Source of the DNA: Bacteroidales bacterium
GTDB lineage: Bacteria; Bacteroidota; Bacteroidia; Bacteroidales; GCA-2748055
Assembly (NCBI GenBank): GCA_016936975.1
Contig: JAFGWU010000014.1
Location: forward strand, 23,529 to 87,528
Length of the DNA stretch: 64,000 nt
Direction: 5' to 3'
Shown here: piece by piece, positions 18,795-45,585 of the stretch
Layout of the letters: each line of letters starts with the position of its first letter
How positions within the stretch are numbered: the first letter of the stretch is position 1
Program-made: the position numbers and the translations under genes
Notes under the pieces: generated by a model
Told to the model about the DNA's origin: nothing
Database searches by the model: none
What the model saw: the letters and a program-made list of their open reading frames with translations, nothing else

Positions 18795-18807
18795 TAACAA
18801 TCAGGAA

Positions 18808-21941: not shown

Positions 21942-22403
21942 CTACCTCATGAATTTTCTCAGTAATTCAGAGCAGATACTGTATCCGTTTCGCCACTCAC
22001 TCTCCCTGGGGCCGGAAAAGTTGAGTATGGCAGGTTTGATCCGGTCGGTAAACTTGCGAAGCTTCATGGCTGCCTTTTCGGGGGTGTGAACCGACATATC
22101 AAGCAGGAGGAACGGCTTCCCTTCCTGACGTGTGAACATATAGGATTCCAGCGTGCCACCCTCCATCTCCTCCATGAAAATGATCACCGTGGCATCGCTT
22201 CCGATGACATTGGCCCGGGTGCGATCAAGATAATCACCACCCGGCAGTTCGGTGAGAGGATACTTTTTATCGATGATACCATCTTCGGCTTTCCGGTCCT
22301 GGGGACACCATCCGCCGCATTCCACACGATTTCCCAGGCAAAAATCGAGCACGGCCCTGTCGACGCCTGTCTGTCCCCCGGAAATGAGTTTTATTTTATC
22401 CAT
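21942..22403 (-). CDS. SLOG-superfamily protein of the YpsA / 'putative molybdenum carrier' type
   Basis: ISGGQTGVDRAVLDFCL...GGWCPQDRKAEDG resembles the PF12694-type motif as I recall it. It overlaps the upstream kinase gene by 13 nt. Confidence 0.6.
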   Translation of the reverse strand: MDKIKLISGGQTGVDRAVLDFCLGNRVECGGWCPQDRKAEDGIIDKKYPLTELPGGDYLDRTRANVIGSDATVIIFMEEMEGGTLESYMFTRQEGKPFLLLDMSVHTPEKAAMKLRKFTDRIKPAILNFSGPRESEWRNGYSICSELLRKFMR

Positions 22404-23314: not shown

Positions 23315-23319
23315 AAATA

Positions 23320-25426: not shown

Positions 25427-25429
25427 GGT

Positions 25430-26761: not shown

Positions 26762-26765
26762 GTGT

Positions 26766-27767: not shown

Positions 27768-27776
27768 ATCCGGGGA

Positions 27777-28928: not shown

Positions 28929-28935
28929 AGAGATT

Positions 28936-31720: not shown

Positions 31721-31721
31721 T

Positions 31722-33329
31722 TTACATCCTGTATATACCCACCCGGGGTTCTTCAAATTTTTTATTCAGAGACATAGAAATGGCCAGGGCGATAATTCTT
31801 CTTGTATCCTTCGGATCGATTATTCCATCGTCCCATAACCTCGAGGTACTGTAATAGGCTGAGCCCTCTTTTTCGTATTTTTCGAGAATCGGTTTCCTGA
31901 TGGCCTTTCGCTCTTCATCGGAAAGTGTTTTTCCCTGTTCCCTTAACTGGTCTTCCTTGATGGTGGCAAGCACATCAGCTGCCTGCTCCCCCCCCATGAC
32001 ACTGATTTTTGCTTCCGGCCACATGAATAGCAATCTTGGTTCATAGGCCCGTCCCGACATGGCGTAATTGCCCGCCCCGAAAGAGCCCCCGAAAATAACG
32101 GTGAACCTTGGTACGCGGGTATTGGCTACGGCATGAACCATCTTTGCGCCGTCCTTGGCAATCCCCTCCTGTTCATAATCCTTCCCCACCATGAAACCAG
32201 CAATGTTCTGGAGAAACAGAATTGGAATTCCCCGGTGATTGCAAAGCTCAACAAAGTGGGTTCCCTTGAGGGAGGATTCACTGAAGAGGATGCCGTTATT
32301 GCCGATAATGCCGACCGGGAAGCCCATAATGCGCGCAAATCCCGTAACAAGGGTGGTCCCATAGTTCTGTTTAAATTCAGAGAATTCACTCCCGTCGACG
32401 ATCCGTGCAATTATTTCCCTCACATCCACCGGTTGCCGGAAACTTTCCGGCAGGATCCCGTAAAGCTCATCAGGATCATAAAGCGGGTCTTTTACAGGGG
32501 AACGATCCATACTCTGCCTTTGGGGAATCTGAATGGTTTCAAAAATATCCCGGCAGATTTGCAGTGCATGCTGGTCACTCTCCGCAAGATGGTCTGCAAC
32601 ACCCGATTTCGTTGTATGTACCAGGCCTCCTCCCAGCTCCTCCGCAGTGACCTCTTCACCGGTGGCCGCTTTAACAAGCGGTGGCCCCCCGAGGAAAATG
32701 GTTCCCTGATCCTTCACGATAATGGTCTCATCACTCATGGCCGGGACATAAGCCCCGCCGGCTGTGCATGAACCCATGACTATGGAGATCTGGGGAATAC
32801 CGGTGGCCGATAAGCGGGCCTGGTTGTAAAAAATCCTGCCGAAATCATCCCGGTCAGGAAATACATCAGCCTGGTTCGGAAGAAAGACACCACCCGAATC
32901 AACAAGGTAAATACAGGGTAATCCGTTTTGCATGGCTATCTCCTGGGCACGGAGATGCTTTTTGATTGTTTCCTCAATGTAGGTCCCACCTTTAACGGTC
33001 GCATCATTGGCCACAATCATGACTTCCTTTCCCTGAATAAGTCCGATACCTGTAACAATACCGGCCGAGGGGAACTGGTTGTCGTACTGACCGAAGGCGG
33101 CAAGGGATGAGAGCTCGAGAAATGGGGTGTTGGGATCGACCAGCATGTTTATGCGATCCCGCACGAGCAACTTACCTCTTCTGGTATGCTTTTCCCGCGC
33201 GCTCTCCGGCCCCCCCATGCTCACCTCCGAAAGTCGTTTCTTTAACAGGTTCACCGACGCTGTATAACGGTTCTTTCGTGACTTGAATTCTTCTGAAGAG
33301 GTATCGATTTTAGAAACCAAGGTTTTCAA
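31722..33329 (-). CDS. liuB: Methylcrotonyl-CoA carboxylase beta subunit (carboxyltransferase)
   Basis: [32 protein letters not shown] and [12 protein letters not shown] are typical of MCC beta / acyl-CoA carboxyltransferase. Confidence 0.88.
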
Positions 33330-33563
33330 TGCAGTCCGGGTTCAGTTCAGTTCTTAATAACAGAAATGAATCAGTTTTGTTTAAAAGTCAGTCCTGAAAT
33401 TAAAACAAAAAGAAGCTTTGCTGATTCAACGCGATAAGTTACATCATATAAAATTTGCATCAAAATATTACACAGCATAGTTCTGGCACTATTCCCCGCC
33501 GTCCGGCAATGTCTGTGCTTACATGTTCCCCTGTGGCAGTCACGGGAGAGTTTCCGGTAAAAA

Positions 33564-33571
33564 TAATTTTG
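33564..33571 (+). promoter_or_regulatory. Candidate -7 box (TAATTTTG) in the AT-rich divergent control region
   Basis: Exact TAnnTTTG match 118 nt upstream of the ATG at 33689. Motif match only. Confidence 0.3.
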
Positions 33572-33688
33572 TTAAATTAAATGCCACACAGAGTCAAAAT
33601 GTGGCTCAGTATTGTAAAATATGTAATTTGATGGCAATGCTTTATATTACAGCATTTATTGTAACTTGTTCGCATTAATTAAAATTGA

Positions 33689-35563
33689 ATGGTTCTCAAT
33701 CTTTCCAGGGCACTGAAGAAAAATACAGACCCGGCCGCCAGAATGCCTGGCCGGTCTGAAGAGGCGGTATCTTTAAACGATCGGGCATACCTGCCCGTTC
33801 CGCTTTATTCGGAGGAAACCGTTTTGCTTCCTGAAATGATTAAGATCAATCCCTACTTCACTCATTTCCTGACATCCGATGGATTGACATGGCTTATATC
33901 CCAGGATAATCCAATCATTCACGATCATATCGCCGGTTTAACAGACTGGTCGGTCAAATATCACACCAGCAGTTCCCTTAAAAAGATTAAAAGGGCCAGG
34001 ATGCAGACCGATATCAGGAGTTACATCAATTATCTGCGAAAGGTGGAATTTTCGGGGTCGGATAATCTGGTGGAGGTGGCGGGCTCGCCGGATAAAGAGT
34101 CTGTGATTGCGGCACTTGTTTCCGTTTCCAGGTCAGGGGACAGAAAACAGATACCTCTAATCATTGCACTTTTCAGGGATCCACATGTCGAAATTGCCAT
34201 GGCGGCTATTGAAACGGCTGAGATACTTAAGGCCGTGGAGGCTGCTCCCATTCTGGCAGAATATCTTGCCAATCCAAAGCTTTACAGCTATGCATGGTCC
34301 GCACTGGTCAATACAGGGGAGGAGGTTGTTGTTCATCTTGAAAAAGCCTTTCACAGACCAGAGCCAACGAATACGATGCTTATCAGGATCATCCGGGCCA
34401 TGACCGTCATTGGTGGAGACAGAATAAACAGGTCCCTGTTCAGGGGAATGGAGCTTCATCGCAGGGAGGTATTTTTCGAGGCTGCAAAAGCATTGTATAT
34501 TAATAATTTTGTCGTATCCGCGGAGGAGAAGCCTTTTTTGCTGAAACATATCGATGAACTGCTGGAGACGGGAGCCTGGAATCTGGTAGCAAGACAGATT
34601 ATTAGAAATGAAGGGAAACATGGCGGTTTGCTTGCCGCTGTTGAGGATGAAATAAGACACACCAATGAGTTGCTATTCATGCTTCTGGGTGTAACATACA
34701 GGAAGAGTTCCATAAGACAGATCAGGCACTCGCTGGAGAATCCCGGGAATCACGATACTGCTGATGCAGTGAAGTTACTGAAACTGATGGTCGATAAACC
34801 TCTGAGAGACCGGCTGGATTGTTATGTAAAAACCTTAACCGGCTCACTAAGGATTGGAAGGTTGAGGAATATGTTCCTGCTGGAGATGCCGGCCTACCAC
34901 AATCTTCTTAAGGCAATCGTGACAATGGATGGAATGCGGCTGGGTAACTACATCAGGATTTGTGCCATAGAAGAGCTTGGTCGGCTCCGGCGGGAAGAGG
35001 ATGAACCCACGATCACTGCTCAATTGTTCCATCCTCTCCCGGTCATCAGGGAATCGGCCCGGGTGGTGATGAAGGAAAAATACGGGAAGCGTTATAAAGA
35101 GATTGAGGAGCGGTTACATTCTGAACTCCCGCTTCAGGAGGAGATACTCCCTGGAAATAAACATTCCCATATTCATCCGGGATCAGCAAGAATGGAGGAT
35201 CTGAGGCACTGGAGACTTTTTGAAAGAGTGGACCTGAATGAGCTGTTGAAACTGGCATGGTCACTGGAGCCGTTTAAAAAAGAGCATATGGAGGATGACC
35301 GGTATGTTACCCTGCTCCGGTCGAACATGTCAGGGAACGGTTCGGTCTACAATTCCGGATTGGTTATCCATCCTGGTTATCATCAGGATTTGGGCGATCT
35401 GATTGTCCGGATAGCCTCAGAAGAGGGCGCTTCGGTTTACCAGGCAGGGATCGCAGGTCTGAAAGAGTTATTGTTTGACAATTCCGGTTTACTGAATTGT
35501 TTCCACGATCTGTTTGTGGGAACCAGGTTAAAAGATCTTAAATCTTCCCTGAAAAAGGATTGA
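33689..35563 (+). CDS. HEAT/armadillo-like repeat protein with a possible degenerate cyclic-nucleotide-binding-like C-terminus
   Basis: 624-aa all-helical repeat region (IPLIIALFRDPHVEIAMAAIETAEILKAVEAAPILAEYL). The C-terminal ~120 aa (LRHWRLFERVDLNELLKLAW...) are weakly cNMP-domain-like. There is no signal peptide or TM segment. Confidence 0.6.
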   Translation: MVLNLSRALKKNTDPAARMPGRSEEAVSLNDRAYLPVPLYSEETVLLPEMIKINPYFTHFLTSDGLTWLISQDNPIIHDHIAGLTDWSVKYHTSSSLKKIKRARMQTDIRSYINYLRKVEFSGSDNLVEVAGSPDKESVIAALVSVSRSGDRKQIPLIIALFRDPHVEIAMAAIETAEILKAVEAAPILAEYLANPKLYSYAWSALVNTGEEVVVHLEKAFHRPEPTNTMLIRIIRAMTVIGGDRINRSLFRGMELHRREVFFEAAKALYINNFVVSAEEKPFLLKHIDELLETGAWNLVARQIIRNEGKHGGLLAAVEDEIRHTNELLFMLLGVTYRKSSIRQIRHSLENPGNHDTADAVKLLKLMVDKPLRDRLDCYVKTLTGSLRIGRLRNMFLLEMPAYHNLLKAIVTMDGMRLGNYIRICAIEELGRLRREEDEPTITAQLFHPLPVIRESARVVMKEKYGKRYKEIEERLHSELPLQEEILPGNKHSHIHPGSARMEDLRHWRLFERVDLNELLKLAWSLEPFKKEHMEDDRYVTLLRSNMSGNGSVYNSGLVIHPGYHQDLGDLIVRIASEEGASVYQAGIAGLKELLFDNSGLLNCFHDLFVGTRLKDLKSSLKKD

Positions 35564-35782
35564 TGGATAGCCTGAGGAACAGGCTTATTTCGGGAAGATT
35601 TGCTAAATTGCGGGCAAATAGAGCCCATGTAATAATATTATACCCCGTTTTGAACAGGTGGTAGAACTGTTCGGCCAAAATTAAGACAAGGTTCAGGATT
35701 ATGGATGTTCCCCATAGGACCATCCTCACTTAACTTTTTCTGATCAACCGGATGAGCAGGAACAATGTGATTTAAGAAGGAT

Positions 35783-38700
35783 ATGACACCGAAAAACCCG
35801 TTTCCCGGATTACGACCCTTCACACTGGAAGAAGCCAATCTTTTTTTCGGTCGTGAAAAACAGGTCAGGGCAGTACTGAAACTGCTTAATTCCAATGGGA
35901 TCGTGTTCGTTACAGGCGTACCGGGAATCGGTAAGACATCTCTGGTCCAATGCGGAGTAGCTCAGGAGTTTTTGAAAACGGCGGGTGAATCGGCCAGAAT
36001 TATCAGCTTCTGCCCGGGGGTCGATCCGATAAGGAGCCTGGTGGATGCGTTTATGAAAAATTTCCCCGGCAAAATCGGGGCAATGGAGGATGTAGTATTG
36101 CTGAATGGGGATGTGACATTGGAATCCTGGCTTAAAGAACACGATCTTATGCATTTCAATTTTCTGCTGATCATCGATAAATTGGAGGAGATATTCAGGG
36201 ATGCTACATTACACGATACAAAGACCGGGGATAACCGGGTGAAAAGATTTGTTGATCTGATTTCCGGGGCAGTTCATGTGCCGGAGCATAAAATCCGGGT
36301 GGCAATTACAATACGGTCGGAAAGGATTGGAGAGTGTTCCGCCTGCAGTGAACTAACCGGTTTGCTCAACAGGAGCCATTATATGTTACCGGTGATGACC
36401 CGTGATAATTACAGGGAGGTCATTGAAGGTCCTTTAAAACAGGCCGGTGTTTCCATAGATGGGAATCTGCTCACACAATTACTGGATGAGACGGGAGAAT
36501 TTGTCAACCGGCTTCCCATGCTCCAGCATGCCATGATGCGGACATTTGATCACTGGAAGGTCCAGAATAAACCTTCAAAGCCATTGTCTGTTATAAATTA
36601 TGAGTCCACCGGAACGCTTCTCAAGGCAGTTTCCCAACATGCTGATGAGGCCTTTTCCGAACTGGGAGAGAAGCAAAAGGAAATCTGCCAGATCTTCTTT
36701 AAAACAATAACGGAAAAAAACGGGGTTGCTGAAGGAATCAGCAGGCCGGCCACTATCGGGAAGATTGCCGGTATTGCTCAATGTGCAACAGAAGAGGTTA
36801 TCGGGGTTGTAAATCATTTCAGGTCGGAGGGAAGAATCTTTTTAACCCCCTGTCATCCTCAGAAATTACTGCCTGCAAGTACAGTTGATCTTTCCCATGA
36901 GTTATTGATGCAATATTGGGATAAATTACGGTTATGGGTTGAGGAGGAGGCCTCATCGGTAGCGATGTACAGGAAACTGGTTAAAGCCTCCGCACTTTAT
37001 CAGGCCGGCCGGATCGGACTGCTGAGGCCGCCCGACCTCGATCTTGCCCTGAGGTGGAAAGAAGAACAAAAACCCCGGCTCGAATGGGCCGCTCAATACA
37101 ATCCGGCCTTTGAGCGGTCGATGCTTTATCTGAACCTGAGTCAGGAAGAATATTTAAAGGAGCAAAATAAAGCGGTCAGATTGCAGAAGAGGAAGTTAAG
37201 GATGCCGCTCATTATTACAGGTGTGGCAGGCATTATGGCAGTGACAGCAACCGGCTTGTTTTTCGGGACCAGGGAAGGATCCAGGCAGGTCGAGGTGGCT
37301 TCAAATGTGGGGGCACCCTCTTTGGAGACTCCGGAACCGGTCGGATTCGAAGCTGAAGTTTTTCCGGAAGATACTTTGCTGTCCACGGCAACAACTCTGG
37401 AAAACCGGGAGCCTGAACAAAGGGAAGAAGAACCTGATTCCCGGCAGGAATCCACTCTCCGGGAAAATATTGAACAGGAGAGAAGGGAGGTCAGGATTGC
37501 AAGGACGACCTCACAGGAAGCCCGCCGCCAGCAGCAGGTCGCTGCACAGAATGAACAGGCCGCGGTTGAGCAGATGGAACAGGCGGAGACGGAACGGCAG
37601 AGAGAATATCGTAACAGGCTCATCTCAAAAGCTAAATCCATTGCTGTGAGATCACTCCAGTTGAGCGACGATCCGGACCTGCAGGCATTGCTTGCTGTTC
37701 AGGCTTACCGGTTTAACTCGGAAAACGGGGGATACCGTTATGATGCCGACATATACCGGGGGCTGTACAACGCCCTTAAAAGCAAAATTTCAGACGGCTA
37801 TAATGTGTATAGCGGACATAACTACTCCGTCAGGTCCCTTGCGTGGTATAAGAGAAGAAATGGATTTCTGAGCGCCGACAGCCAGGGAAAAATTCTCTTC
37901 ATGTCCGGCGATTTTCGGAATAACAGGTCCAATTCGTTAATCGCCAATACCGGGCACGTCAATGAAGCAGTCGCAATCAGCCCTGATGAAACCCTTTTTG
38001 CCTGCGGGACAGATGGTGGGGGATTATATGTTTTTCAGATGTCGGACCCCTCGGAGAATTACAGCTTCAGGGAAGCCCACGGGGGGAAAGTGCAGATGCT
38101 TGCATTCTATGATAGCGGGAGGAGACTGGTTTCTGCCGGAGCTGATAACACAATCATGAAATGGAATCTCAACAGCCGGACGGGAGAGTTATTCGCTCAG
38201 CTAGAATCCAGGCCGACATCAATGGCTGTCTCAAATGCTTTAACGCACCTGGTCGTTGGAACAAGAGACGGAAAACTGGTGGAGTACCTTTTCGAAAATC
38301 CGGGTGATGGAAGGATTTTATACCATAACTCCGGAAATCCGGTCATGGCCGTAACATATAGTCCCAATGACAATCAGGTCGTCATTGGAACGCTGGATGG
38401 ATCGGTAAGGATAATCAACCGAAGCAATATATCTTCTGTGATAACCGTAAAGGGGCCGGAAGCACGGGTAACTGATCTGGCTTACAGTAATAACGGAAAA
38501 TTCCTGGCTGCTGCCTCGCATGATGGCAATGTTTACCTCTGGGAAACATCTGATTGGAACGAACAACCGGTAGTGGTGGGAGATAACCAGGGATTTGTAC
38601 TGACCCTCTGTTTCAGCGATGACAGCCGGCATTTCTACAGCGGAAGCACAAAAGCCCCATTGCTGATTGGAAGGCCCGTGGAATCTTCCCTGATGGTGAA

Positions 38701-38806
38701 CGGTTTCTGTGCATTGATAAACAGAAATCTGTCACGTGAGGAATGGAATATGTATATCGGAGATGATATTCCTTACGAAAAAACCTGTCCGGAAAAAGAG
38801 CCATAA
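35783..38806 (+). CDS. STAND-class NTPase (nSTAND-like) - single TM - E/Q/R-rich coiled coil - 7-bladed WD40 propeller
   Basis: N-terminus NPFPGLRPFTLEEANLFFGREKQV. Walker A GVPGIGKTS and Walker B LLIIDKLEE. TM segment MPLIITGVAGIMAVTATGLFFG preceded by KRKLR. Low-complexity EQR segment. Seven WD-like blades (for example HGGKVQMLAFYDSGRRLVSAGADNTIMKWNL and VTDLAYSNNGKFLAAASHDGNVYLWE). Confidence 0.85.
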   Translation: MTPKNPFPGLRPFTLEEANLFFGREKQVRAVLKLLNSNGIVFVTGVPGIGKTSLVQCGVAQEFLKTAGESARIISFCPGVDPIRSLVDAFMKNFPGKIGAMEDVVLLNGDVTLESWLKEHDLMHFNFLLIIDKLEEIFRDATLHDTKTGDNRVKRFVDLISGAVHVPEHKIRVAITIRSERIGECSACSELTGLLNRSHYMLPVMTRDNYREVIEGPLKQAGVSIDGNLLTQLLDETGEFVNRLPMLQHAMMRTFDHWKVQNKPSKPLSVINYESTGTLLKAVSQHADEAFSELGEKQKEICQIFFKTITEKNGVAEGISRPATIGKIAGIAQCATEEVIGVVNHFRSEGRIFLTPCHPQKLLPASTVDLSHELLMQYWDKLRLWVEEEASSVAMYRKLVKASALYQAGRIGLLRPPDLDLALRWKEEQKPRLEWAAQYNPAFERSMLYLNLSQEEYLKEQNKAVRLQKRKLRMPLIITGVAGIMAVTATGLFFGTREGSRQVEVASNVGAPSLETPEPVGFEAEVFPEDTLLSTATTLENREPEQREEEPDSRQESTLRENIEQERREVRIARTTSQEARRQQQVAAQNEQAAVEQMEQAETERQREYRNRLISKAKSIAVRSLQLSDDPDLQALLAVQAYRFNSENGGYRYDADIYRGLYNALKSKISDGYNVYSGHNYSVRSLAWYKRRNGFLSADSQGKILFMSGDFRNNRSNSLIANTGHVNEAVAISPDETLFACGTDGGGLYVFQMSDPSENYSFREAHGGKVQMLAFYDSGRRLVSAGADNTIMKWNLNSRTGELFAQLESRPTSMAVSNALTHLVVGTRDGKLVEYLFENPGDGRILYHNSGNPVMAVTYSPNDNQVVIGTLDGSVRIINRSNISSVITVKGPEARVTDLAYSNNGKFLAAASHDGNVYLWETSDWNEQPVVVGDNQGFVLTLCFSDDSRHFYSGSTKAPLLIGRPVESSLMVNGFCALINRNLSREEWNMYIGDDIPYEKTCPEKEP

Positions 38807-38820
38807 GTACCAAAAATTAA

Positions 38821-39861
38821 ATGATGAGGACCGGCCTGGTCATACTATTTTTTGTCATCGTTTATCCTTTCAACAATCTGATCGGGCAGGAAGAGTGTGA
38901 ACGCCTGTTAAGGATCGCCCGCGAACGATATGAAGCAGGTCGTGTTGAAGATGTTCCGGAACTTCTGAAAGATTGTCTCGCCTCCGGGTTAACCAGGGAA
39001 GACCAGATGGAGGCCTATAAGCTTATTATCAATTCCTATCTGTTTGATGGATTTTCCGAAAGAGCAGATTCGGTGATGTTATCCTTCCTGAATCGCTTCC
39101 CGGATTATAAACCTGCCGATGCTGATCCTGCAGAATTTCAGCAGCTGTTGGGTTCTTACCGGACCACTCCTGTTCTGTCGGTCGGTTGGTTATTTGGTGG
39201 AAACTTCTCCGTTCCCCAGCTCATCGAGGCTTACAGCACAGCTTCACCCCTGACGGACGACGGTACATTTAAATTTCCTGTTGCAGGCTTTCAGACAGCT
39301 CCTTTCTGCAATATCAGGATTGGAGAAAAGGCTGAAATGGGCTTTGAGTTGCGGTTCATGCAGAACCGTTTTAAGTATCGGACCCGGCCTTATACTTTTC
39401 TGGAGAATGAATACGTTGAACGACAAAACCGGCTGATAGTCCCGGTATCGTTTATTTACCGGATAGGCCCCGAGCAGAAAGCAGAACCTTATATCATCGC
39501 CGGAGCTGCCGCCGATTATCTTTTATCTGCCGCAGCCCATGCTTCGCGTTCCTACACAGAAACGGGGGATATGGTTTTTTCGGATGTGCTGCTCCCCCTT
39601 ACCGGGGTCACCGGGATGAGAAAAAGGTATAATGGATGGTTGTTCGCAGGAGGAGGCATCCGTCTGAACCTTCAACGTTCTTTCTGGTTTGCTGATCTTC
39701 GTTTCTGGGTTGGCTTGTCTTCAGCCAATAAGGGGGATGAACGTTATATCATACCCGATTTAAACTGGTTAATCTACTATGTGGATAACGATTTCAGAAT
39801 GAATTGTGTTACCTTTTCAATAGGCTACGCCCGGAATTTTTACAATCCCAAAAAGAGGTAA
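38821..39861 (+). CDS. Secreted protein with an N-terminal TPR-like hairpin plus a predicted outer-membrane beta-barrel
   Basis: Signal peptide, a helical segment (ERLLRIARERYEAGRVEDVPELLKDCL), then an alternating beta-strand-like region (VGWLFGGNFSV...) ending in aromatic-rich strands. It starts 14 nt after the STAND gene. Confidence 0.6.
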   Translation: MMRTGLVILFFVIVYPFNNLIGQEECERLLRIARERYEAGRVEDVPELLKDCLASGLTREDQMEAYKLIINSYLFDGFSERADSVMLSFLNRFPDYKPADADPAEFQQLLGSYRTTPVLSVGWLFGGNFSVPQLIEAYSTASPLTDDGTFKFPVAGFQTAPFCNIRIGEKAEMGFELRFMQNRFKYRTRPYTFLENEYVERQNRLIVPVSFIYRIGPEQKAEPYIIAGAAADYLLSAAAHASRSYTETGDMVFSDVLLPLTGVTGMRKRYNGWLFAGGGIRLNLQRSFWFADLRFWVGLSSANKGDERYIIPDLNWLIYYVDNDFRMNCVTFSIGYARNFYNPKKR

Positions 39862-39866
39862 ACGTG

Positions 39867-41057
39867 ATGAGGAATTCCGTCGGGATATATATGGCTGCGA
39901 TGTTCTTCCTGTTCTCCTGTGAAGTTGGGATCTCGGAAGAACAATCGGATACATTCATCAAGTTCTACGGGAATTACCTTCTTGATTCAGGTTCCGATGT
40001 AGTCAAAACTGATGAGGGGGGGTATGCGGTTGCAGGCACGACCTCTATTCCCGATTCTGTCACGGCAATGGTATTGATGAAAACCGATGAATACGGCAAC
40101 CTTCTGAGAAGATTTCCAAGGTATTATACTGACGGAAGGGATTGCGGGACCAGATACCTGCTGAAACTGGATGACGGGTTTCTTTTATGCGGCTACGTAA
40201 TGGCCGACGGGATCGGCGGCAGATTTCAGGAAGATATTTGCCTTATCAGGACCACCATTGATGGTTCCGTTGTCTGGCGCAAAACTTTTGGTGGCAACGG
40301 AGACGAAAATGTCAATCATGTCGTGGAAGGAAATTCGGACGGGTTTGTCATTGCAGGCTACAGGGAGCTGGACAATGAAAAAGACTACTGGATATTTTCC
40401 ATCAGCGGGGATGGGGATTTTATAAGGGAGGTGCCGCCGCAGCCAATCCCGGATAACAGCGATGATATGGCCAATTGCCTGGTGAATGTTCAGGGTATGG
40501 GATATCTCTGTGCCTGCACTTATAATGATGATACCCATAAAGGGACCAACGTTCTGATGCTTGCAATCAACAATGATTTAAATACACCCTATAACATTTC
40601 CCTGGGAACGGATGGCAATGATTATGGAAAGGCCCTTATTAAAGGTGAAACGAATACCTATTATGTTCTGGGAAATACCCGGAATGAATCATCGGGGAAG
40701 ATGGAAATATTTGTTTACAGCCTGGAGATGGACGGATTAAGATTTATAAATTTTTCTGAGTTTGCAACGATCCGGTCGGATTCAGAGGACTTAACAGGAG
40801 AAAGGTTCGTTATGACAGCCCCTGGTAGTTTTGCCATCATCGGGTCGTCCGGCTATGACAATAATTATGATATTCTATTGCAATTTGTTGAACAGGGGAT
40901 ACCATCCGGACGATTCTATTTCGGGGAAACCGGTAACCAGACCGGTGCTGGCATTCTCGTTTCAGATGATGGGGGCCTGGTTTTTGTAGGAACAAATACC
41001 TATGAGGGAAATAGCATGATTTCGCTTGTGAAAACCAACATTAATGGTGAACTTTAG
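39867..41057 (+). CDS. Lipoprotein with repeated beta-propeller-like modules
   Basis: Start MRNSVGIY at 39867 and lipobox FLFSC. A recurring motif occurs about every 45-55 aa (GGYAVAGTT, DGFLLCGYV, DGFVIAGYR, YYVLGNTRN, FAIIGSSG, GLVFVGTN). Confidence 0.65.
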   Translation: MRNSVGIYMAAMFFLFSCEVGISEEQSDTFIKFYGNYLLDSGSDVVKTDEGGYAVAGTTSIPDSVTAMVLMKTDEYGNLLRRFPRYYTDGRDCGTRYLLKLDDGFLLCGYVMADGIGGRFQEDICLIRTTIDGSVVWRKTFGGNGDENVNHVVEGNSDGFVIAGYRELDNEKDYWIFSISGDGDFIREVPPQPIPDNSDDMANCLVNVQGMGYLCACTYNDDTHKGTNVLMLAINNDLNTPYNISLGTDGNDYGKALIKGETNTYYVLGNTRNESSGKMEIFVYSLEMDGLRFINFSEFATIRSDSEDLTGERFVMTAPGSFAIIGSSGYDNNYDILLQFVEQGIPSGRFYFGETGNQTGAGILVSDDGGLVFVGTNTYEGNSMISLVKTNINGEL

Positions 41058-41082
41058 TAACGATGTCCGGAACCTGTTTGAA

Positions 41083-44000
41083 ATGAAGAGGAAAACACTA
41101 ATCCTGCTCCTTACGCTTCTTATATGCAGTTCACCATTCCTGAACGGGCAGACAGAACCCTATGCGATCCTGTCCAGGGGTTCACTGGGCGACCTGACGG
41201 AAAGAAACCTTGACGGGAGTCTGTTTTATGTGAAACTGCACGGGGAGCAGTTCTCAGACGCTACACTGTTCGCCGGGAATTTCAGCCTCACAACCTCAAT
41301 TCAAAATCTTTCGGTGAGCGAAGTTTTTTACAGGGGAGCCGATACCTGTATCTGCAGGTTGGTATATCCTGAAGGGGCTGATTTTGACGAGATTCAATCC
41401 ATTTCATTAACCATCGATGCATCCGAACTGGTGGGAAGCCAGGATGTGTCGAGTGCGAATACCCTCCCGGTGACTCCGCTGATTGAACCGGTCATAACAA
41501 ATGTTACGATTGCTGACCATCCTTATAAAATCGGGGATCAGGTCTATTGCACCATCACTGTTGAGACTGATTCAGAAGAGGATTATACCTATGACGGGGG
41601 AACCGTCGCCGGTCGTTCCCTTCAGGGATTCACCCGTACCGGGACTGTAGTCTATCAGGCCTATGTTACTGTCGAAGAGGGAGGACCGGCTTATGCCGCA
41701 GGGGAGGATATTCCTGTCAGTAACCTGCGGCTTTTCAATCCCGACGGATTTGTCTATGGTGAATTTTATAATGCCTTGATCTCTCAGCCAAACGATGTGA
41801 TCGATTCGGACCGGCCGGTTGTAAATTCCGCCGTTGTTAACGGGGGGACCTATCGTGTTGGACAGACTCTTTCCCTGGCAGTGACTGCCGACCAGTCAGA
41901 TTATGTTTTTGATCCCGTGCTGACCACCACCAATGGGATCCCTTTGACCGAATCCCGGGTATATGAAGGAATCGTCTCCGGTAATCAATATTACCTGAAT
42001 TATACAGTGGCAGAAGGAGATGATGATCTTCTGTCCGGACCGTTGCCGGTTGAAATCGTTATGATTGACCCGGTCGGAAATGCAAACATCAATCCCTTTA
42101 CTGCTGTTTCCGGTATCAATCCATTAATTGATGCCAACAGTCCACAATTGCTTTCTGCTGAAATTGTTGATCCGGATGTATGCATTATCGGGGACACCGT
42201 TCAAATGCTGCTTGATTTTAGTGAAGGCGGAATCTCGGCAAGGTCAGGAACACATGTAAACCAGATCCCCCTTGGAACACAGGTGAAATTTCAACCGGTT
42301 TCGGGCACACGGTACAGTTTAATTTATATAGTTTATGAAGGGGATCAGCAGGTTAATCCCGGTGAGCTCACTTATAATGTGGTTGTACAGGATCCTTTGG
42401 GCAATGAGTCATCTTCCGCCATCACTCCGTTAAACAATACGGTTTCGGTTTATGCAACCAGGCCTACGGCTGTGATTTCAGGCGAAGGAGAAATTTGCAG
42501 GGGTAGTTCCCATAAAATATCCGCAACATTTACCGGCGACGGGCCATGGGATGTAACTATTGAGGGAGACCAGGGATTCAACCAGTCCTTTTTCAATATT
42601 ACAAGCCCTTTCACGCTCTTTGTCAAGCCAACGGTTACAGAAACGTATGCCGTTACGGGTCTGTTTGATAAACATGGTAATTCCGGAACCGGCTATGGGT
42701 CCGTAGTGGTTAAGGTAAACCTGCCAACGCCGGTAACCATTCTCAATACACAGCTGGTCTATCTGAGGGATGCCGAGCCGGTTCAACTGCTTGGAGATCC
42801 TGAAGGAGGTGTTTTCTCAGGCGAAGGGGTTGAATCTTCAACAGGGATTTTTTATCCCGGGCTCGTGGATACATCAACCAATCAAACCACCATTATGTAT
42901 TTATATGTGAATGAATACGGTTGTTCAAGCAGTGCCACAAAGCAATTCACAGTGATTGATCAGGGTTATGCAATCTCCGGGTTGCCAGGTGTGGTGTGTG
43001 AGAATGATGATCCCTTTGAGGTTTCTGCTTTTAATGAATCGGGAAATCCGGGGATTTTCCGTTTACTGAAGGATGGAACGGATGTGTCATCTTCCGGATT
43101 AGCCGATCCGGATCCTGGGGATGATACGGTGATCATTATCCCGGGAGCCCTGGAAAGGGGATTTTATGATCTCGAGTACAGTTTTGAGTTCAATGAAGAA
43201 CGATACAGTTATCTTACACCCTTCTTTCTCGACCGGGTAGCGCATTTTGCGGTACTGAGTCCTGATTCAGTCTGTGCCAATGCCGGGCCAATCGAATTAA
43301 TTGTTACTCCAAACAGCGATTTCAATACGATTAACACGCATGTTTATACCGGTCAAGGTGTCAGCGGGAATCTGTCAACCGGTTATTTTTTCGATCCGGA
43401 GGAGGCGGATTCAGGAACCAATATGATCAATTACCAAATTACCTCCTCGGAAGGATGTGTAAAAGATACCAGCTTCATGATTGTAAAGCTGGATGTGCCT
43501 TTGCCTGATTTTGATGTAAGCACGGTTTGCATCCCTTCGGAGGGAGGGGAGGTATCCATGATAAACCTGACAAATAAACAGGAGCTGGTGAAGGAGTGGC
43601 TCTGGAATTTCGGAGATATCAACAGCGGTACACAAAATACCAGCACTCTGTTTGAACCGGTCCATCGTTATACTGCATCCGGAAACCGGACCATTCAGCT
43701 CAGGATCGGCACCACGGAAGGATGTATGGCCATCCTTCAGAAAACCATTGAATTTGCAGACAAACCCGTATCTGATTTCACATGGGTATCTGATTGTTAC
43801 AGTGAAACCCGGGGGATTGAGTTTGTAAATAAGTCCTCCAGTGACTCCCCCTGGTTACGTCACATCTGGACGATTTTTGAAAACTCGGGGAAGCCGGTCA
43901 ATACGATAACCCTGTCGGGTCCCACAAATATGGTTTATCAGTTTAGTAAAGTGGATGATTATCGGGTCCGCCTGGTTTGCGAAAATGTAAAGGGATGTAC

Positions 44001-45585
44001 AGACACCCTTGAGCGTTTGGTGGCTTTGAAACCCACCTTGATCTTAAATACCGATAATAGTTATTATGAAACGTTTGATCAATCGAATGGCCGTTGGGAT
44101 AGCCGGGCAGACAGCCTGAGCATATCCAGCTGGACCTACGGAGAACCCGATTTCGACGGTTTTGAATCGATGCCCGGCAATTTTGCATGGTTCACGGATC
44201 TTCCTGAGATTAAAACCGCTGAATCATCATGGGTTCAGAGTCCCTGCTTTGATATGACCGGCATGGAAAAACCGTTAATAAGACTCGACATTATGAAGAG
44301 TTTTAATGCCCGTTATGACGGAGCTGTTCTTCAATATACGCTGGATAATGGAAAAACGTGGCAGAACGTTGGAAGTGTGGATGACGGTATACAATGGTAT
44401 AATGCATCGGATATCATCAGCGCTCCCGGAGGCAGCAGCACCGGGTGGAGCGGAACAACTACGTTTAATCCTGATACCCGCTGGATTCAAGGTTCCCATG
44501 ATCTTAACGATCTCATAAACAGAAAAAATGCCGTATTCAGAATTGCCTATGCTTCGGATGGCAGCCCGGGGGAAGATAATCATGGCTTTGCCTTTGATAA
44601 TTTCTTTATCGGTGAGAGGACCCGTATGACGGTACTTGAATATTTTACCAACAGCAGCAGTTCTGCCTCACTGAGTGCAGACCGGATAGCCGATCAATTC
44701 ATTACCGGTATTGACAGTCTGGATGTGATCACGCTCCAGTATCACACAGCTTATCCGGGAGAGGACCCGATGAACCTGAACAATCCTTACCCGGCATCAG
44801 GCAGATCATTCTATTATGGAATTACCGAGGTGCCCTTTGCTGTTCTGAACGGGGGTACAAGGCAGGATCTTCAGTTTGATTTTGAGGCGGAAATTCCCCA
44901 ATCGATGGATGTAAGAATGATCGCCCTTGAATTACCAAAATTTGATATTCAAATCGAGGTGACCTTGAATGATGGAAACATGGATATGAATATCCGGTTA
45001 ACGGCACTGGATGATTATCCGGAGGATGAACTTTTACTGCATACCGTTATTGCAGAGCGCCTGGTAACTGGGTATAAGGGAAATAACGGGGATGATGAAT
45101 TCAGGAATGTGGTTCTTGAGATGCTGCCTGATCCTGCCGGTAAACTGATTCAAAAAGAGTGGTACCAGGGAGAATCATATATCCAGCCTTATTCATGGAC
45201 TATGGAACATTATGAGGATCAGGAAGAACTTATCGTGATCTCCTTTCTTCAGGAACGTCAGACCGGGGAGATCCTTCAGGCAGCAAAATGGGATGTTTTT
45301 TCAGCCACCGGAGTCACTACCCGGGACTGGAACGTGCGTGAACTCAGTATTTTCCCAAATCCGGTTTCCGATATATTGTTTGTTCTGACAGGTGAAAGGA
45401 ATAGTCAGGACCCGCTTCTGACCATTCTTGATCTGACCGGACGAAGGATAATGATCAGTCAGCCGGGACCCGGTAACAGCCCGGTTGAACTGCCGGTCAA
45501 CAATCTGCAAAAAGGGATTTATTTATTGAATTATTCTGAAAACGGATTGCTGAAGGGCCGGTGCAAATTCATCAAGATTGAGTGA
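41083..45585 (+). CDS. Giant (~1,500 aa) T9SS-secreted adhesin-like protein with Ig-like repeats, a PKD-like domain and a jelly-roll (MAM/LamG-like) domain
   Basis: Signal peptide MKRKTLILLLTLLICSSPFLNGQ. Repeated Ig-like modules end in YxxxYxVxEGD...DPxGN. PKD-like WNFGD...HRYTASGNRTIQL. The C-terminal LSIFPNPVSDILFV...GIYLLNYSENGLLKGRCKFIKIE matches the T9SS CTD pattern. Confidence 0.85.
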   Translation: MKRKTLILLLTLLICSSPFLNGQTEPYAILSRGSLGDLTERNLDGSLFYVKLHGEQFSDATLFAGNFSLTTSIQNLSVSEVFYRGADTCICRLVYPEGADFDEIQSISLTIDASELVGSQDVSSANTLPVTPLIEPVITNVTIADHPYKIGDQVYCTITVETDSEEDYTYDGGTVAGRSLQGFTRTGTVVYQAYVTVEEGGPAYAAGEDIPVSNLRLFNPDGFVYGEFYNALISQPNDVIDSDRPVVNSAVVNGGTYRVGQTLSLAVTADQSDYVFDPVLTTTNGIPLTESRVYEGIVSGNQYYLNYTVAEGDDDLLSGPLPVEIVMIDPVGNANINPFTAVSGINPLIDANSPQLLSAEIVDPDVCIIGDTVQMLLDFSEGGISARSGTHVNQIPLGTQVKFQPVSGTRYSLIYIVYEGDQQVNPGELTYNVVVQDPLGNESSSAITPLNNTVSVYATRPTAVISGEGEICRGSSHKISATFTGDGPWDVTIEGDQGFNQSFFNITSPFTLFVKPTVTETYAVTGLFDKHGNSGTGYGSVVVKVNLPTPVTILNTQLVYLRDAEPVQLLGDPEGGVFSGEGVESSTGIFYPGLVDTSTNQTTIMYLYVNEYGCSSSATKQFTVIDQGYAISGLPGVVCENDDPFEVSAFNESGNPGIFRLLKDGTDVSSSGLADPDPGDDTVIIIPGALERGFYDLEYSFEFNEERYSYLTPFFLDRVAHFAVLSPDSVCANAGPIELIVTPNSDFNTINTHVYTGQGVSGNLSTGYFFDPEEADSGTNMINYQITSSEGCVKDTSFMIVKLDVPLPDFDVSTVCIPSEGGEVSMINLTNKQELVKEWLWNFGDINSGTQNTSTLFEPVHRYTASGNRTIQLRIGTTEGCMAILQKTIEFADKPVSDFTWVSDCYSETRGIEFVNKSSSDSPWLRHIWTIFENSGKPVNTITLSGPTNMVYQFSKVDDYRVRLVCENVKGCTDTLERLVALKPTLILNTDNSYYETFDQSNGRWDSRADSLSISSWTYGEPDFDGFESMPGNFAWFTDLPEIKTAESSWVQSPCFDMTGMEKPLIRLDIMKSFNARYDGAVLQYTLDNGKTWQNVGSVDDGIQWYNASDIISAPGGSSTGWSGTTTFNPDTRWIQGSHDLNDLINRKNAVFRIAYASDGSPGEDNHGFAFDNFFIGERTRMTVLEYFTNSSSSASLSADRIADQFITGIDSLDVITLQYHTAYPGEDPMNLNNPYPASGRSFYYGITEVPFAVLNGGTRQDLQFDFEAEIPQSMDVRMIALELPKFDIQIEVTLNDGNMDMNIRLTALDDYPEDELLLHTVIAERLVTGYKGNNGDDEFRNVVLEMLPDPAGKLIQKEWYQGESYIQPYSWTMEHYEDQEELIVISFLQERQTGEILQAAKWDVFSATGVTTRDWNVRELSIFPNPVSDILFVLTGERNSQDPLLTILDLTGRRIMISQPGPGNSPVELPVNNLQKGIYLLNYSENGLLKGRCKFIKIE

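Follow-up and report, generated by a model that had tools for sequence, protein, structure and literature searches.

A conserved Bacteroidota gene cluster encodes an NLR-like inner-membrane ATPase, predicted outer-membrane proteins, and a giant secreted surface protein

INTRODUCTION

STAND (NLR-like) NTPases of the nSTAND1 clade (PF20703; Kaur et al. 2020; Kaur, Iyer, Burroughs & Aravind 2021) have been described in conflict systems, where effectors are fused or EAD-linked and sensors are cytoplasmic. The canonical STAND scheme gives sensing to the C-terminal repeats and switching to the NTPase (PMC7159879). The SprB gliding-adhesin operon of Flavobacterium johnsoniae (sprC-sprD-sprB-sprF) combines a giant repetitive surface protein, secreted via the type IX system (T9SS), with small envelope accessory genes. 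Its distinguishing features we take to be a type B C-terminal domain (CTD) and a PorP/SprF barrel. Tol-Pal and TonB-type links have an anchor in the inner membrane and a long, charged stalk in the periplasm, with a C-terminal domain that faces an outer-membrane (OM) lipoprotein or propeller. TPR and propeller modules also serve in the periplasmic layer of the T9SS, where the lipoprotein PorE consists of TPR, WD40 propeller, and OmpA_C domains (PMC5053529). Finally, the Esr epibiont-sensing pathway of oral Actinobacteria, in which signaling from the surface inward has been shown, encodes within a single cluster an Ig-like surface filament, a β-propeller, a P-loop ATPase, and a protein phosphatase (PMC13622651).

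Here we describe a locus in a 64,000-nucleotide stretch of Bacteroidales DNA (the window) that resembles each of these systems in part.

RESULTS

A membrane-anchored STAND NTPase. Four intact ORFs, A to D, lie on the plus strand; the ORF coordinates of an initial annotation and the gaps between successive genes, read directly from the sequence as 14, 5, and 25 nt, were reproduced exactly. Gene A has the following features.

35783..38806, + strand: gene A, membrane-anchored nSTAND1 NTPase-TM-WD40 protein, 1007 aa (Pfam, topology)
35798-37006, + strand: NTPase and winged-helix module, residues 6-408 (nSTAND1 PF20703)
37007-37207, + strand: juxtamembrane segment, highly conserved, residues 409-475
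37208-37264, + strand: single TM, residues 476-494 (hydrophobic segment)
37265-37651, + strand: stalk, charged, E/R/Q/A-rich, residues 495-623
37652-38662, + strand: WD40 propeller, residues ~624-960 (WD40 models)
38663-38803, + strand: C-terminal tail with the Cys976/Cys1002 pair

Gene A resembles the nSTAND1 clade: residues 6 to 408 match PF20703 over the model's full length (E 1e-73), the NTPase motifs are intact, with the Walker A and B residues K51, D132, and E135 invariant in 74 orthologues, and residues ~670 to 960 match WD40 and propeller models in Pfam, as a C-terminal WD40 sensor. These matches and the one hydrophobic segment bear out the original description of a TM-anchored STAND protein with WD40 repeats, a layout that is also found in Streptomyces, cyanobacteria, and myxobacteria. 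The NTPase begins at residue 6, leaving no fused effector.

One TM segment was present in all 26 orthologues tested, preceded by 5 to 7 K/R residues and followed by 1 to 4, a positive-inside bias. Because the NTPase requires cytoplasmic NTP and there is only one TM segment, the WD40 sensor is predicted to be periplasmic, at the tip of a charged stalk of ~130 residues; the topology thereby supports the periplasmic sensor suggested earlier. The stalk is long, charged, and A/E/Q/R/K-rich across orthologues (median, 129 aa). Evolution is faster in the WD40 part than in the NTPase (mean pairwise identity, 37.5% versus 56%), and Cys976 and Cys1002 of the extracytoplasmic tail covary, both being present in 61 orthologues and both absent in 13. 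Unlike the described nSTAND1 systems, gene A combines the lack of a fused effector with a sensor predicted to be periplasmic, and its chromosomal cluster, which is fixed, also encodes OM proteins and a T9SS cargo.

Two putative outer-membrane partners. The next two genes encode a small barrel and a lipoprotein.

38821..39861, + strand: gene B, OM protein, 346 aa (PF13568, AlphaFold2)
residues 1-22, + strand: gene B signal peptide (AlphaFold2 model)
38887-39150, + strand: gene B periplasmic helical (TPR-like) domain of ~90 residues with conserved Cys26 and Cys52, residues 23-110
39169-39843, + strand: gene B small β-barrel, ~10 strands, residues 117-341
39867..41057, + strand: gene C, lipoprotein, 396 aa, lipobox LFSC with Cys18 (conserved lipobox, AlphaFold2)
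39954-41036, + strand: gene C seven-bladed β-propeller, residues ~30-390 (AlphaFold2)

Gene B had been labeled a TPR plus β-barrel protein. The barrel stands, with a match to OMP_b-brl_2 (PF13568; 32 bits, cut-off 27) and an AlphaFold2 model (pLDDT 89.9) that comprises a signal peptide, a helical domain, and a small barrel; the helical domain is TPR-like only, and a Pfam search matched no TPR model. The structures matched by Foldseek are small OM barrels, OmpA, OmpW, Pla, and NspA among them; similarity to FadL was poor (TM ≤ 0.2), and PorV was absent from the matches. NCBI names a homologue "PorT family protein." Gene C, described initially as a lipoprotein with propeller-like repeats, fits that description: at least 90% of 42 homologues retain Cys18, and the AlphaFold2 model (pLDDT 90.9, pTM 0.88, ~30 β-strands) can be read as a seven-bladed propeller. 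A Pfam search of gene C gave no match, and the best fold match in the PDB was the CylK propeller (TM 0.76). From the signal peptide of B and the lipobox of C, both are predicted to be OM proteins whose interaction domains face the periplasm.

A T9SS cargo with a conserved base. Gene D is the largest of the four.

41083..45585, + strand: gene D, T9SS cargo, 1500 aa (PKD_4, type-A sorting domain)
residues 1-22, + strand: signal peptide
41149-42990, + strand: N-terminal part, lineage-variable, residues 23-636
42991-45348, + strand: conserved base with weak Omp28-like region, residues ~637-1422
43582-43734, + strand: PKD, within the conserved base, residues 834-884 (PKD_4)
45349-45576, + strand: type-A sorting domain, residues 1423-1498 (PF18962, TIGR04183)

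The PKD domain and T9SS sorting domain assigned to this protein at the outset were recovered, the latter by PF18962 and TIGR04183 (32.8 bits, cut-off 23), but no model above threshold confirmed the Ig and jelly-roll part of the label. The last 700 to 1000 residues align to the C-terminal end of every orthologue, while the N-terminal parts vary from 0 to >2000 extra residues; D of one related locus (L169, 914 aa) is essentially the conserved base alone. Adhesin-type domains (SprB, cadherin, Calx-beta, fn3) occur among the orthologues. Gene D is predicted, from its signal peptide and sorting domain, to be secreted by the T9SS, with a conserved base and a variable tip.

A HEAT-repeat gene and further accessory genes. 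The four-gene unit drawn originally was too narrow. The commonest gene upstream of STAND in related loci is a HEAT gene, and the HEAT gene of the window belongs to the cluster.

33564..33571, + strand: TAATTTTG, weak candidate promoter that fits the Bacteroidetes -7 consensus TAnnTTTG perfectly and lies 118 nt upstream of the HEAT gene
33689..35563, + strand: HEAT-repeat protein, soluble, 624 aa (HEAT_2, E 2e-9)
35051-35560, + strand: C-terminal divergent cyclic-nucleotide-binding-like domain of the HEAT protein, residues ~455-624 (hhalign)

In most related loci the STAND gene is preceded by a 12-TM MFS-HEAT protein with a cyclic-nucleotide-binding-like domain, from a family of 394 clusters (E ≤ 1e-10), mostly ~1050 aa. 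The window's HEAT protein, in which no TM segment was found, corresponds to the cytoplasmic half of this protein: it is 29% identical to residues 564 to 1072 of the MFS-HEAT protein of locus L087 (tblastn), and its C-terminal domain aligns with that of the family (hhalign probability 96%, E 2e-9). The family profile of this domain matches the cyclic-nucleotide-binding domains of PKG and PKA (E 3e-17) and, weakly, the Pycsar effector PycTIR. Fuller versions of the cluster add a PP2C phosphatase that carries HAMP and has a loop in the periplasm. Often they also encode a TIR-like protein (TIR_2 plus DUF4062); in about half of the loci its gene is the one immediately upstream of STAND.

The TAnnTTTG consensus derives from Bacteroides promoters. 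In the intergenic regions of the cluster it is matched perfectly by TAATTTTG alone, and neither the HEAT-STAND gap nor any of the A/B/C/D junctions holds a match; three matches in 12.5 kb are roughly what chance would give, and TAATTTTG is at most a weak candidate for the operon promoter.

The window carries a reduced five-gene variant of the cluster: HEAT protein with cyclic-nucleotide-binding-like domain, STAND, OM barrel, propeller lipoprotein, and T9SS surface protein. It has neither the PP2C nor the TIR-like gene, and of the MFS-HEAT protein it is missing the MFS half; the locus could be partly decayed, though all five ORFs are intact.

Conservation of the cluster. A lack of synteny in any other genome had been named beforehand as a ground for refutation, and it clearly does not apply: when the STAND proteins are divided at 50% identity into 11 subclades, at least 9 keep the order STAND-barrel-lipoprotein-giant cargo. 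Among 72 non-redundant related loci drawn from the 80 best matches listed, a sample that may be biased, 64 have B after the STAND gene. In all 34 loci that could be assessed, C is succeeded by a large ORF on the same strand, and nearly all of these ORFs that are complete end in a T9SS tail. Median gaps are 28 nt from A to B and 5 nt from B to C. The linkage is kept across STAND proteins as low as 33 to 40% identical to that of the window, and, looking in reverse from B or C homologues, a STAND gene lay upstream in four of four cases examined. With the same order in dozens of independent loci, the A-B-C-D linkage goes beyond chance.

In 42 loci the PP2C gene occurs along with B-C-D, and in 6 both are missing (Fisher p = 5e-6); among the loci listed, PP2C was never seen without B, and their losses are scattered within STAND subclades. 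Eight loci have STAND without B-C-D, seven of them as MFS-HEAT plus STAND; therefore, the STAND pair can work, or at least persist, without the OM and surface parts.

The locus in the window is surrounded by housekeeping genes, those for MCCase and mevalonate to one side and those for Psd, CdsA, and FtsH to the other, and distant relatives have the locus at the same chromosomal position, which argues for vertical inheritance rather than a mobile defense island. Flanks vary among loci: of 12 loci, 3 have the flavodiiron gene after D, of 40, 16 have Vut_1 upstream, other loci have an aminotransferase or DnaE gene on the right, and in cultured Fulvivirga marina (strain 29W222), which carries the cluster, the left flank is different. 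The cluster is conserved and vertically inherited in many Bacteroidota. We found no paper describing it, nor, in keeping with what the initial annotation had stated, one linking a STAND NTPase to a T9SS cargo.

DISCUSSION

The analogy with the SprB operon that was proposed initially does not hold. Some D orthologues share SprB repeats, but the window's D has none; its CTD is type A, not type B, and B joins a helical domain to a small barrel that is PorT-like rather than of the PorP/SprF kind. We know of no STAND, HEAT, or PP2C partner in spr operons. The cluster recalls Tol-Pal and TonB-type links in its layout, with no sequence homology to Tol-Pal, TonB, or PorE detected in its proteins; its switch is a cytoplasmic STAND NTPase, not a proton-motive-force stator, and B and C lack an OmpA_C peptidoglycan-binding domain. 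The resemblance to Esr is one of logic only: Esr has a monoderm host, unrelated proteins, a MoxR AAA+ ATPase and vWA instead of STAND, Ser/Thr kinases, and no OM or T9SS.

The reading that we tentatively prefer, as a real possibility, is an envelope-spanning signaling device that runs from a surface and OM assembly to a cytoplasmic NTP switch. The WD40 domain would dock under the OM on the helical domain of B, the propeller of C, or both, with B and C holding the conserved base of D or keeping watch over it. A surface change, be it in ligand, in load, or by loss of D, would be relayed inward and flip the STAND NTPase to an oligomeric on-state; this would act on cytoplasmic partners, in the window the HEAT protein and in fuller versions also the MFS membrane domain, the HAMP-PP2C phosphatase, and the TIR-like protein. 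This reading draws on the linkage that persists beside variable flanks, the joint loss of PP2C and B-C-D, the topology, the invariant Walker residues, and the base-and-tip build of D. Across loci the cytoplasmic partners bear signaling domains (cyclic-nucleotide-binding-like, PP2C with HAMP, TIR_2 plus DUF4062). We infer the direction only from the general STAND paradigm, which would favor surface to cytoplasm at least as well as the reverse. Counting against the model, type-A T9SS cargo does not normally need a dedicated OM partner, eight loci keep STAND without B-C-D, and the window's own cluster lacks the PP2C, TIR-like, and MFS parts that would extend the output branch.

The same conserved linkage and trans-envelope geometry would also serve a signal sent outward, the reading put forward initially, in which the NTP state of STAND passes through stalk and WD40 domain and gates, by way of B and C, how D is anchored, exposed, released, or turned over, as a regulated adhesin or cell-contact module. 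TolA/TolB/Pal-type links act from the inner membrane outward, and the long charged stalk and OM lipoprotein propeller recall their layout; the adhesin-type domains of D orthologues also suit such a role. However, we know of no STAND NTPase that drives an extracytoplasmic output. This direction seems unlikely, given that the repeats are the input side in known STAND cases (PMC7159879), that the PP2C, TIR-like, and cyclic-nucleotide-binding-like accessories are cytoplasmic and fit an inward signal better, and that no Tol, TonB, or OmpA_C homology was detected in the cluster proteins. Somewhat less doubtful is a role in immunity or conflict, where D would be a receptor or decoy for phage, epibionts, or competitors, STAND a transmembrane NLR, and the TIR-like protein the maker or destroyer of a nucleotide read by the MFS-HEAT cyclic-nucleotide-binding-like domain, leading to arrest or death. 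The clade itself is known from conflict systems (PMC8195603), there are earlier predictions of periplasmic sensors for STAND systems (PMC10907252), and Esr offers a precedent, an Ig-filament and propeller sensor at the surface feeding a kinase/phosphatase pathway against epibionts (PMC13622651); the frequent TIR-like neighbor, the weak PycTIR match, the variable distal part of D, and the faster-evolving WD40 domain point the same way. Yet PADLOC defense models gave no specific match for any component (STAND only weakly matches three models), STAND has no fused effector, the TIR-like gene is optional and absent from the window, and the position among housekeeping genes speaks for vertical inheritance.

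It is very improbable that the STAND/HEAT pair and B-C-D have separate functions and merely share an inherited neighborhood or operon. The eight loci without B-C-D would allow this, and the housekeeping flanks are also syntenic with the window in several relatives, so that part of the conservation is plain shared ancestry. Against it, the linkage survives different flanks and low STAND identity, neighboring genes stand a few to tens of nucleotides apart, loss of B-C-D goes with loss of PP2C, and B and C orthologues were found only beside STAND genes in the four cases examined.

The cluster links an NLR-like inner-membrane ATPase to OM proteins and a giant secreted surface protein, and its role we infer. 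If the preferred reading, with the signal running from the surface inward, is true, it would represent STAND signaling with a periplasmic sensor coupled to a T9SS surface protein.

Conservation of the gene cluster

The four genes that the initial annotation had grouped into one system lie on one strand, with intergenic gaps of 14, 5, and 25 nt read from the sequence:

35783-38806, +, gene A: STAND NTPase, 1007 aa
38821-39861, +, gene B: predicted outer membrane (OM) barrel protein, 346 aa
39867-41057, +, gene C: predicted propeller lipoprotein, 396 aa
41083-45585, +, gene D: predicted T9SS cargo, 1500 aa

More than 100 full-length homologues of the STAND protein were found (36 to 58% identity, ∼1000 to 1050 aa), and the few with a named source are from Bacteroidota metagenome bins. 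Wherever individual homologues were looked up, one of them on a 3.67-Mb contig, the order was the same: STAND, a barrel of ∼345 aa, a protein of ∼400 aa without a Pfam match, and a T9SS cargo of 900 to more than 3100 aa. The survey consisted of ten such look-ups together with the best 80 matches of a metagenome-contig scan, which was seeded with the conserved juxtamembrane stretch of the STAND protein because the alignment of C was too divergent for that use. ORFs of the 80 loci were called in six frames and classed by BLASTP against reference family members, after which duplicates were removed.

Among the nonduplicate loci from these best 80 matches, gene B followed the STAND gene in 64 of the 72 with at least 600 nt downstream, and the estimated median gaps were 28 nt between STAND and B and 5 nt between B and C. 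Estimates of the gap between C and D are unreliable because the N termini of D do not align, and the presence of a next large ORF was scored instead; a large same-strand ORF followed C in all of the loci, again from the best 80 matches, with at least 1.5 kb beyond C (34/34), and nearly all of the complete ones end in a T9SS-type tail. When the STAND proteins were grouped into subclades at 50% identity, at least 9 of the 11 groups showed this gene order. The reverse search agreed, with all four of the B or C homologues examined adjoining a STAND gene. One of the four belongs to the cultured Fulvivirga marina 29W222, whose cluster is near-complete (WP_202855446 to WP_202855450, with a giant gene after them). 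The initial annotation had named neighborhood conservation as the check on its unit, and the order does recur in other genomes; these comparisons strongly support genetic coupling of the cluster genes.

The flanking genes are less conserved than the order of the cluster. Downstream of D the window has a flavodiiron gene, which only 3 of the 12 loci that could be assessed share at this place, and others have an aminotransferase or DnaE gene on their right flank; a Vut_1 gene lies upstream in 16 of 40 loci, and the Fulvivirga left flank is an OmpA/PD40 gene. Individual loci also carry disruptions. An insertion of ∼1.3 kb splits gene B in one related locus (L154, 10165-12552), and fragmented STAND and MFS-HEAT genes occur in two others (L172 and L173), with B, C, and D intact after them; assembly frameshift errors are the most likely cause of this fragmentation.

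Domain organization and topology of the STAND protein

Residues 6 to 408 of gene A match the Pfam nSTAND1 family (PF20703; E = 1e-73, 249.5 bits, cutoff 27.1) over profile positions 1 to 373 of 379, a full-length match, and many WD40 and propeller models match residues ∼670 to 960. By its profile match the protein is a member of the nSTAND1 clade. All 74 orthologues compared, the window protein included, have the Walker A lysine (K51) and the Walker B residues (D132 and E135).

Exactly one hydrophobic segment was found in each of 26 STAND orthologues tested, with five to seven Lys or Arg residues within the 15 residues before it and one to four after it. Since the NTPase requires cytoplasmic NTP and there is a single hydrophobic segment, the C-terminal half must be periplasmic; the periplasmic sensor proposed in the initial annotation agrees with this positive-inside, single-segment topology in all 26. 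The periplasmic half comprises, in order, a charged linker, a conserved pre-propeller segment, the WD40 propeller, and a tail with Cys976 and Cys1002. The linker is rich in A, E, Q, R, and K and has a median length of 129 residues (range, 108 to 150); if helical, ∼130 residues would span ∼18 to 20 nm by our estimate (0.15 nm per residue), so that the WD40 propeller could come near the outer membrane. Both tail cysteines are present in 61 orthologues and both are replaced in 13, a pattern of joint presence and absence that would be expected of a disulfide in an oxidizing compartment.

Mean pairwise identity of STAND regions among 74 orthologues
Juxtamembrane segment (residues 408-475): 70%
NTPase region: 56%
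WD40 region: 37.5%
Linker: 33.5%

B and C are 22 to 35% identical between subclades, and the periplasmic parts of the STAND protein, at 33.5 to 37.5%, thus change about as fast as these two proteins do. The most conserved part of the STAND protein is the cytoplasmic segment that precedes the TM helix (residues 408 to 475; window 37004-37207), which is a candidate partner-docking site. The public name of the Fulvivirga marina orthologue (WP_202855448.1; 6832-9996 of locus L168) is "High-affinity carbon uptake protein Hat/HatR"; the name looks to have been transferred via WD40 similarity and would conceal the family from keyword searches.

Predicted structures of B and C

The sole Pfam match of B is OMP_b-brl_2 (PF13568; 32.0 bits, cutoff 27), and NCBI labels the Fulvivirga orthologue a "PorT family protein." An AlphaFold2 model built on the homologue alignment (pLDDT, 89.9) shows, after the signal peptide, a helical domain (∼90 residues) and then a small barrel with ∼10 strands. 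The helical domain, which is additional to the PorT-like barrel and predicted to be periplasmic, contains two conserved cysteines, Cys26 and Cys52. In fold the barrel resembles the small OmpA-, OmpW-, Pla-, and NspA-type barrels of 8 to 10 strands; the 14-strand FadL fold matched B poorly (TM ≤ 0.2), and PorV was absent from the fold matches. The signal peptide and barrel of the initial annotation were therefore recovered, but its TPR domain is at most TPR-like, no TPR model scoring above threshold.

C has no Pfam or NCBIfam match, and NCBIfam gave nothing for the HEAT protein encoded upstream of gene A, for A, or for B. The AlphaFold2 model of C, also built on the homologue alignment (pLDDT, 90.9), has ∼30 β-strands after the lipobox cysteine, Cys18, and its best match among solved folds is the CylK propeller (TM, 0.76). 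We read the model as a seven-bladed propeller lipoprotein, in line with the propeller-type lipoprotein suggested earlier.

Gene D is a predicted T9SS cargo with a variable N-terminal part

D carries a type-A sorting domain (TIGR04183, 32.8 bits, cutoff 23; PF18962, 37.3 bits, cutoff 27) and an N-terminal signal peptide apparent from sequence (MKRKTLILLLTLLICSSPFLNG|Q), features from which it is predicted to be a T9SS type-A cargo. Pfam also matched a PKD_4 domain and a weak Omp28-like region. Of the domains first proposed for D, the PKD and T9SS C-terminal domain (CTD) thus stand, but no Ig or jelly-roll model scored above threshold. A phmmer search of PDB sequences with D gave no match, and a relaxed-threshold Pfam search gave only weak, subthreshold labels for D and nothing for the C terminus of the window HEAT protein.

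From residues ∼500 to 800 through 1500, the window D aligns to the C-terminal end of every orthologue. The N-terminal parts vary from nothing (the 914-aa protein of locus L169) to more than 2000 extra residues, which bear SprB, cadherin, Calx-beta, fn3, or Big_5 domains. As judged from these alignments, D has a constant C-terminal base and a variable N-terminal part.

The cluster extends upstream and is reduced in the window

The unit first delimited holds for its four genes, but its boundary does not: the cluster extends upstream of gene A. In most loci the STAND gene can be preceded by three more genes on the same strand:

MFS-HEAT protein: ∼1000 to 1100 aa; ∼12 TM segments (weak MFS_1), HEAT repeats, and a C-terminal domain
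HAMP-SpoIIE (PP2C) phosphatase: ∼660 aa; two TM segments flanking a periplasmic loop of ∼270 residues
TIR-like protein: 430 to 490 aa, soluble; TIR_2 and/or DUF4062; in about half of the loci

The TIR-like gene lies directly upstream of the STAND gene and often overlaps it (e.g., 8602-9993 in locus L086 and 5370-6827 in L168). A profile of the MFS-HEAT C-terminal domain matches the cyclic-nucleotide-binding domains of PKG and PKA (E = 3e-17), and the Fulvivirga protein is named "cyclic nucleotide-binding domain-containing protein" in NCBI and UniRef.

The window has one counterpart of these genes:

33689-35563, +, HEAT gene: 624 aa, no TM segment; HEAT and C-terminal half of the MFS-HEAT protein

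Its product is 29% identical to residues 564 to 1072 of the MFS-HEAT protein of locus L087, and its C-terminal domain matches the profile of the cyclic-nucleotide-binding-like family with an hhalign probability of 96%; the window HEAT subclade alone did not reach the cyclic-nucleotide-binding domains in the PDB, and the window sequence has no clear phosphate-binding-cassette motif. Nowhere in the 64-kb window is there a PP2C, TIR-like, Vut_1, or MFS part. Both flanks are syntenic with fuller loci (methylcrotonyl-CoA carboxylase subunits and enoyl-CoA hydratase on the left; flavodiiron protein, Psd, CdsA, and FtsH on the right), and yet the upstream parts are missing, which indicates that the window cluster is a derived, reduced variant. 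Compared with the syntenic loci L087 and L083, it has lost Vut_1, the entire HAMP-PP2C gene, and the half of the MFS-HEAT gene that encodes the 12 TM segments; these sites now hold 360 nt (33330-33688) and 219 nt (35564-35782) of intergenic DNA, and the soluble HEAT-CNB-like ORF is left intact. The upstream genes are also absent from the closest relative (L081, STAND 58% identical), and the two nearest HEAT homologues are likewise short (681 and 762 aa). With five intact ORFs and conserved catalytic residues, a pseudogenized locus was ruled out, and the upstream deletions are real.

Seven loci keep only the MFS-HEAT and STAND genes, and B is likewise missing from one more STAND locus, which lies on a short contig (the eight are L001, L095, L108, L125, L127, L128, L148, and L162). 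The presence of the PP2C gene and of B was compared across loci.

Presence of PP2C and gene B in loci with both flanks assessable
PP2C present, B present: 42 loci
PP2C absent, B absent: 6 loci
PP2C absent, B present: 3 loci
PP2C present, B absent: 0 loci

The two are associated (Fisher P = 5e-6), and the losses of PP2C and B-C-D are scattered inside STAND subclades, which points to repeated co-loss of the phosphatase gene and B-C-D. This joint presence and absence, with the scattered losses, argues that the PP2C phosphatase and the outer membrane and surface genes work together.

Other genes in the window

A block at 6445-20712 resembles a polysaccharide-utilization locus and includes a second T9SS cargo:

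6445-9042: GH31 enzyme with its own sorting domain
9279-12647, -: GH106 rhamnosidase
12664-14025, -: 453-aa protein without a Pfam match
14058-15542, -: GH88 enzyme
15696-20712: SusC/SusD pair

At 22391-33329 (- strand), mevalonate-pathway genes lie directly beside leucine-catabolism genes, an adjacency that possibly reflects a link from leucine through HMG-CoA to isoprenoids:

mevalonate genes, -: GHMP kinase, diphosphomevalonate-decarboxylase-like protein, HMG-CoA reductase (25430-26791)
leucine-catabolism genes, -: acyl-CoA dehydrogenase, biotin carboxylase, enoyl-CoA hydratase, carboxyltransferase

A circularly permuted YpsA (SLOG-family) protein of 153 aa adjoins the mevalonate genes (21942-22403, -). 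Uncharacterized families are represented by a DUF6057 protein (554 aa) that overlaps the start of a PD40-propeller protein (151-3304) and by a DUF4140/DUF4139 protein of 543 aa (59364-60995). Scans for σ70 promoters (23 versus 21 in shuffled sequence), whose models do not apply to Bacteroidota promoters, and for terminators (14 versus 14) were at shuffle level.

Comparison with known systems

Antiviral STAND systems (Avs, bNACHT, and the like) have a fused effector, a specific match to a defense model, and a patchy, mobile context, none of which was found for this cluster. The NTPase of gene A begins at residue 6, and no effector domain was detected in the protein. PADLOC gave three weak matches, all to the STAND protein (HEAT-ARM_XIII in the WD40 part, mad8, and PDC-M26A), and no other cluster component matched a model. 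Both flanks consist of housekeeping genes, unlike a defense island, and relatives with STAND proteins of ∼40% identity carry the locus at the same place in the chromosome. A mobile defense island was ruled out by this context, the syntenic position, and the lack of a specific PADLOC match.

The initial annotation had also drawn an analogy to SprB and its SprC/D/F partners (sprCDBF), which fails: D matches only the type-A CTD model and no type-B CTD, and B is a small OMP_b-brl_2 barrel rather than a PorP/SprF barrel. SprB repeats (PF13573), a feature of the SprB adhesin, are absent from the window D but present in the D orthologues of loci L085 and L171. Membership in an SprB operon was ruled out by the CTD type, the barrel, and the lack of these repeats in the window protein.

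The layout of NTPase, TM segment, and WD40 domain is widespread, occurring in Streptomyces, cyanobacteria, and myxobacteria too; among the matches listed from a contig scan with the STAND alignment, most were distant STAND proteins of Actinobacteria and cyanobacteria, and four loci (L001 to L004) were from Bacteroidota. An earlier study predicted a sensor domain in the periplasm for STAND systems (PMC10907252), and Tol-Pal, PorE, and Esr are like the cluster in layout or logic only. In keeping with the earlier remark that no STAND NTPase was known in T9SS-cargo operons, a full-text search of an incomplete collection turned up no work on Bacteroidota that ties a STAND NTPase to SpoIIE, to PorT-like barrels, or to T9SS cargo.

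A possible signaling route across the envelope

Three modules predicted to face the periplasm, the stalked WD40 domain, the helical domain of B, and the propeller of C, are encoded together with a surface protein whose base is constant. The simplest reading is that WD40, B, C, and D would form a physical chain from the inner membrane to the cell surface. The usual STAND scheme has the C-terminal repeats as input and the NTPase as switch (PMC7159879); this arrangement and the cytoplasmic signaling accessories (PP2C, TIR-like, and CNB-like) favor outside-in signaling through the cluster, which we regard as plausible if still short of probable. The WD40 domain would read the state of the B/C/D assembly, and its reading would set the state of the NTPase, which would act on the HEAT-CNB-like partner and, in fuller versions, also on the PP2C phosphatase, the TIR-like protein, and the MFS membrane domain. 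Past the topology, these are steps that we infer.

In the opposite direction, the STAND protein would gate display of the adhesin from inside, as the initial annotation proposed; with the repeats as input and the accessories in the cytoplasm, we consider this improbable. A surface-sensing immunity system is made attractive by the TIR-like and cyclic-nucleotide-binding-like parts and has a precedent in the Esr system of Actinobacteria (PMC13622651), but its setting among housekeeping genes, which is syntenic and apparently inherited vertically, and the lack of a specific PADLOC match count against it, and we judge it somewhat unlikely. Beside the conserved gene order and the co-loss, it seems highly improbable that STAND/HEAT and B-C-D lack functional coupling. 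In its fullest form, outside-in signaling through the cluster would make it a trans-envelope NLR: a STAND protein with a periplasmic sensor, wired to a T9SS-displayed giant with a variable tip by way of a dedicated OM barrel and propeller lipoprotein, might detect surface contact (phage, epibiont, neighbor, or substrate) and answer by TIR-like, CNB-like MFS-HEAT, and PP2C nucleotide or phosphatase signaling. We advance this tentatively, as a possibility.

Significance

In the current view, bacterial STAND/NLR-like proteins do their sensing in the cytoplasm, where they mostly recognize phage proteins, and T9SS surface proteins are adhesins or enzymes for which we know of no dedicated signaling partner. 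The nSTAND1 clade is already known; what would be new here is STAND signaling in a trans-envelope, T9SS-linked configuration. The version in the window is reduced, as it lacks the phosphatase, the TIR-like protein, and the MFS part, and the near-complete cluster of cultured Fulvivirga marina 29W222 makes the question of coupling directly testable. This widely conserved Bacteroidota cluster suggests a way in which cell surface events could be relayed to a cytoplasmic switch that depends on NTP, and its PP2C, TIR-like, and cyclic-nucleotide-binding-like parts are typical of second-messenger signaling. If the trans-envelope NLR is real, it would be, to our knowledge, the first bacterial STAND/NLR-type receptor with an extracellular input, and it would place T9SS surface proteins under a new layer of regulation.
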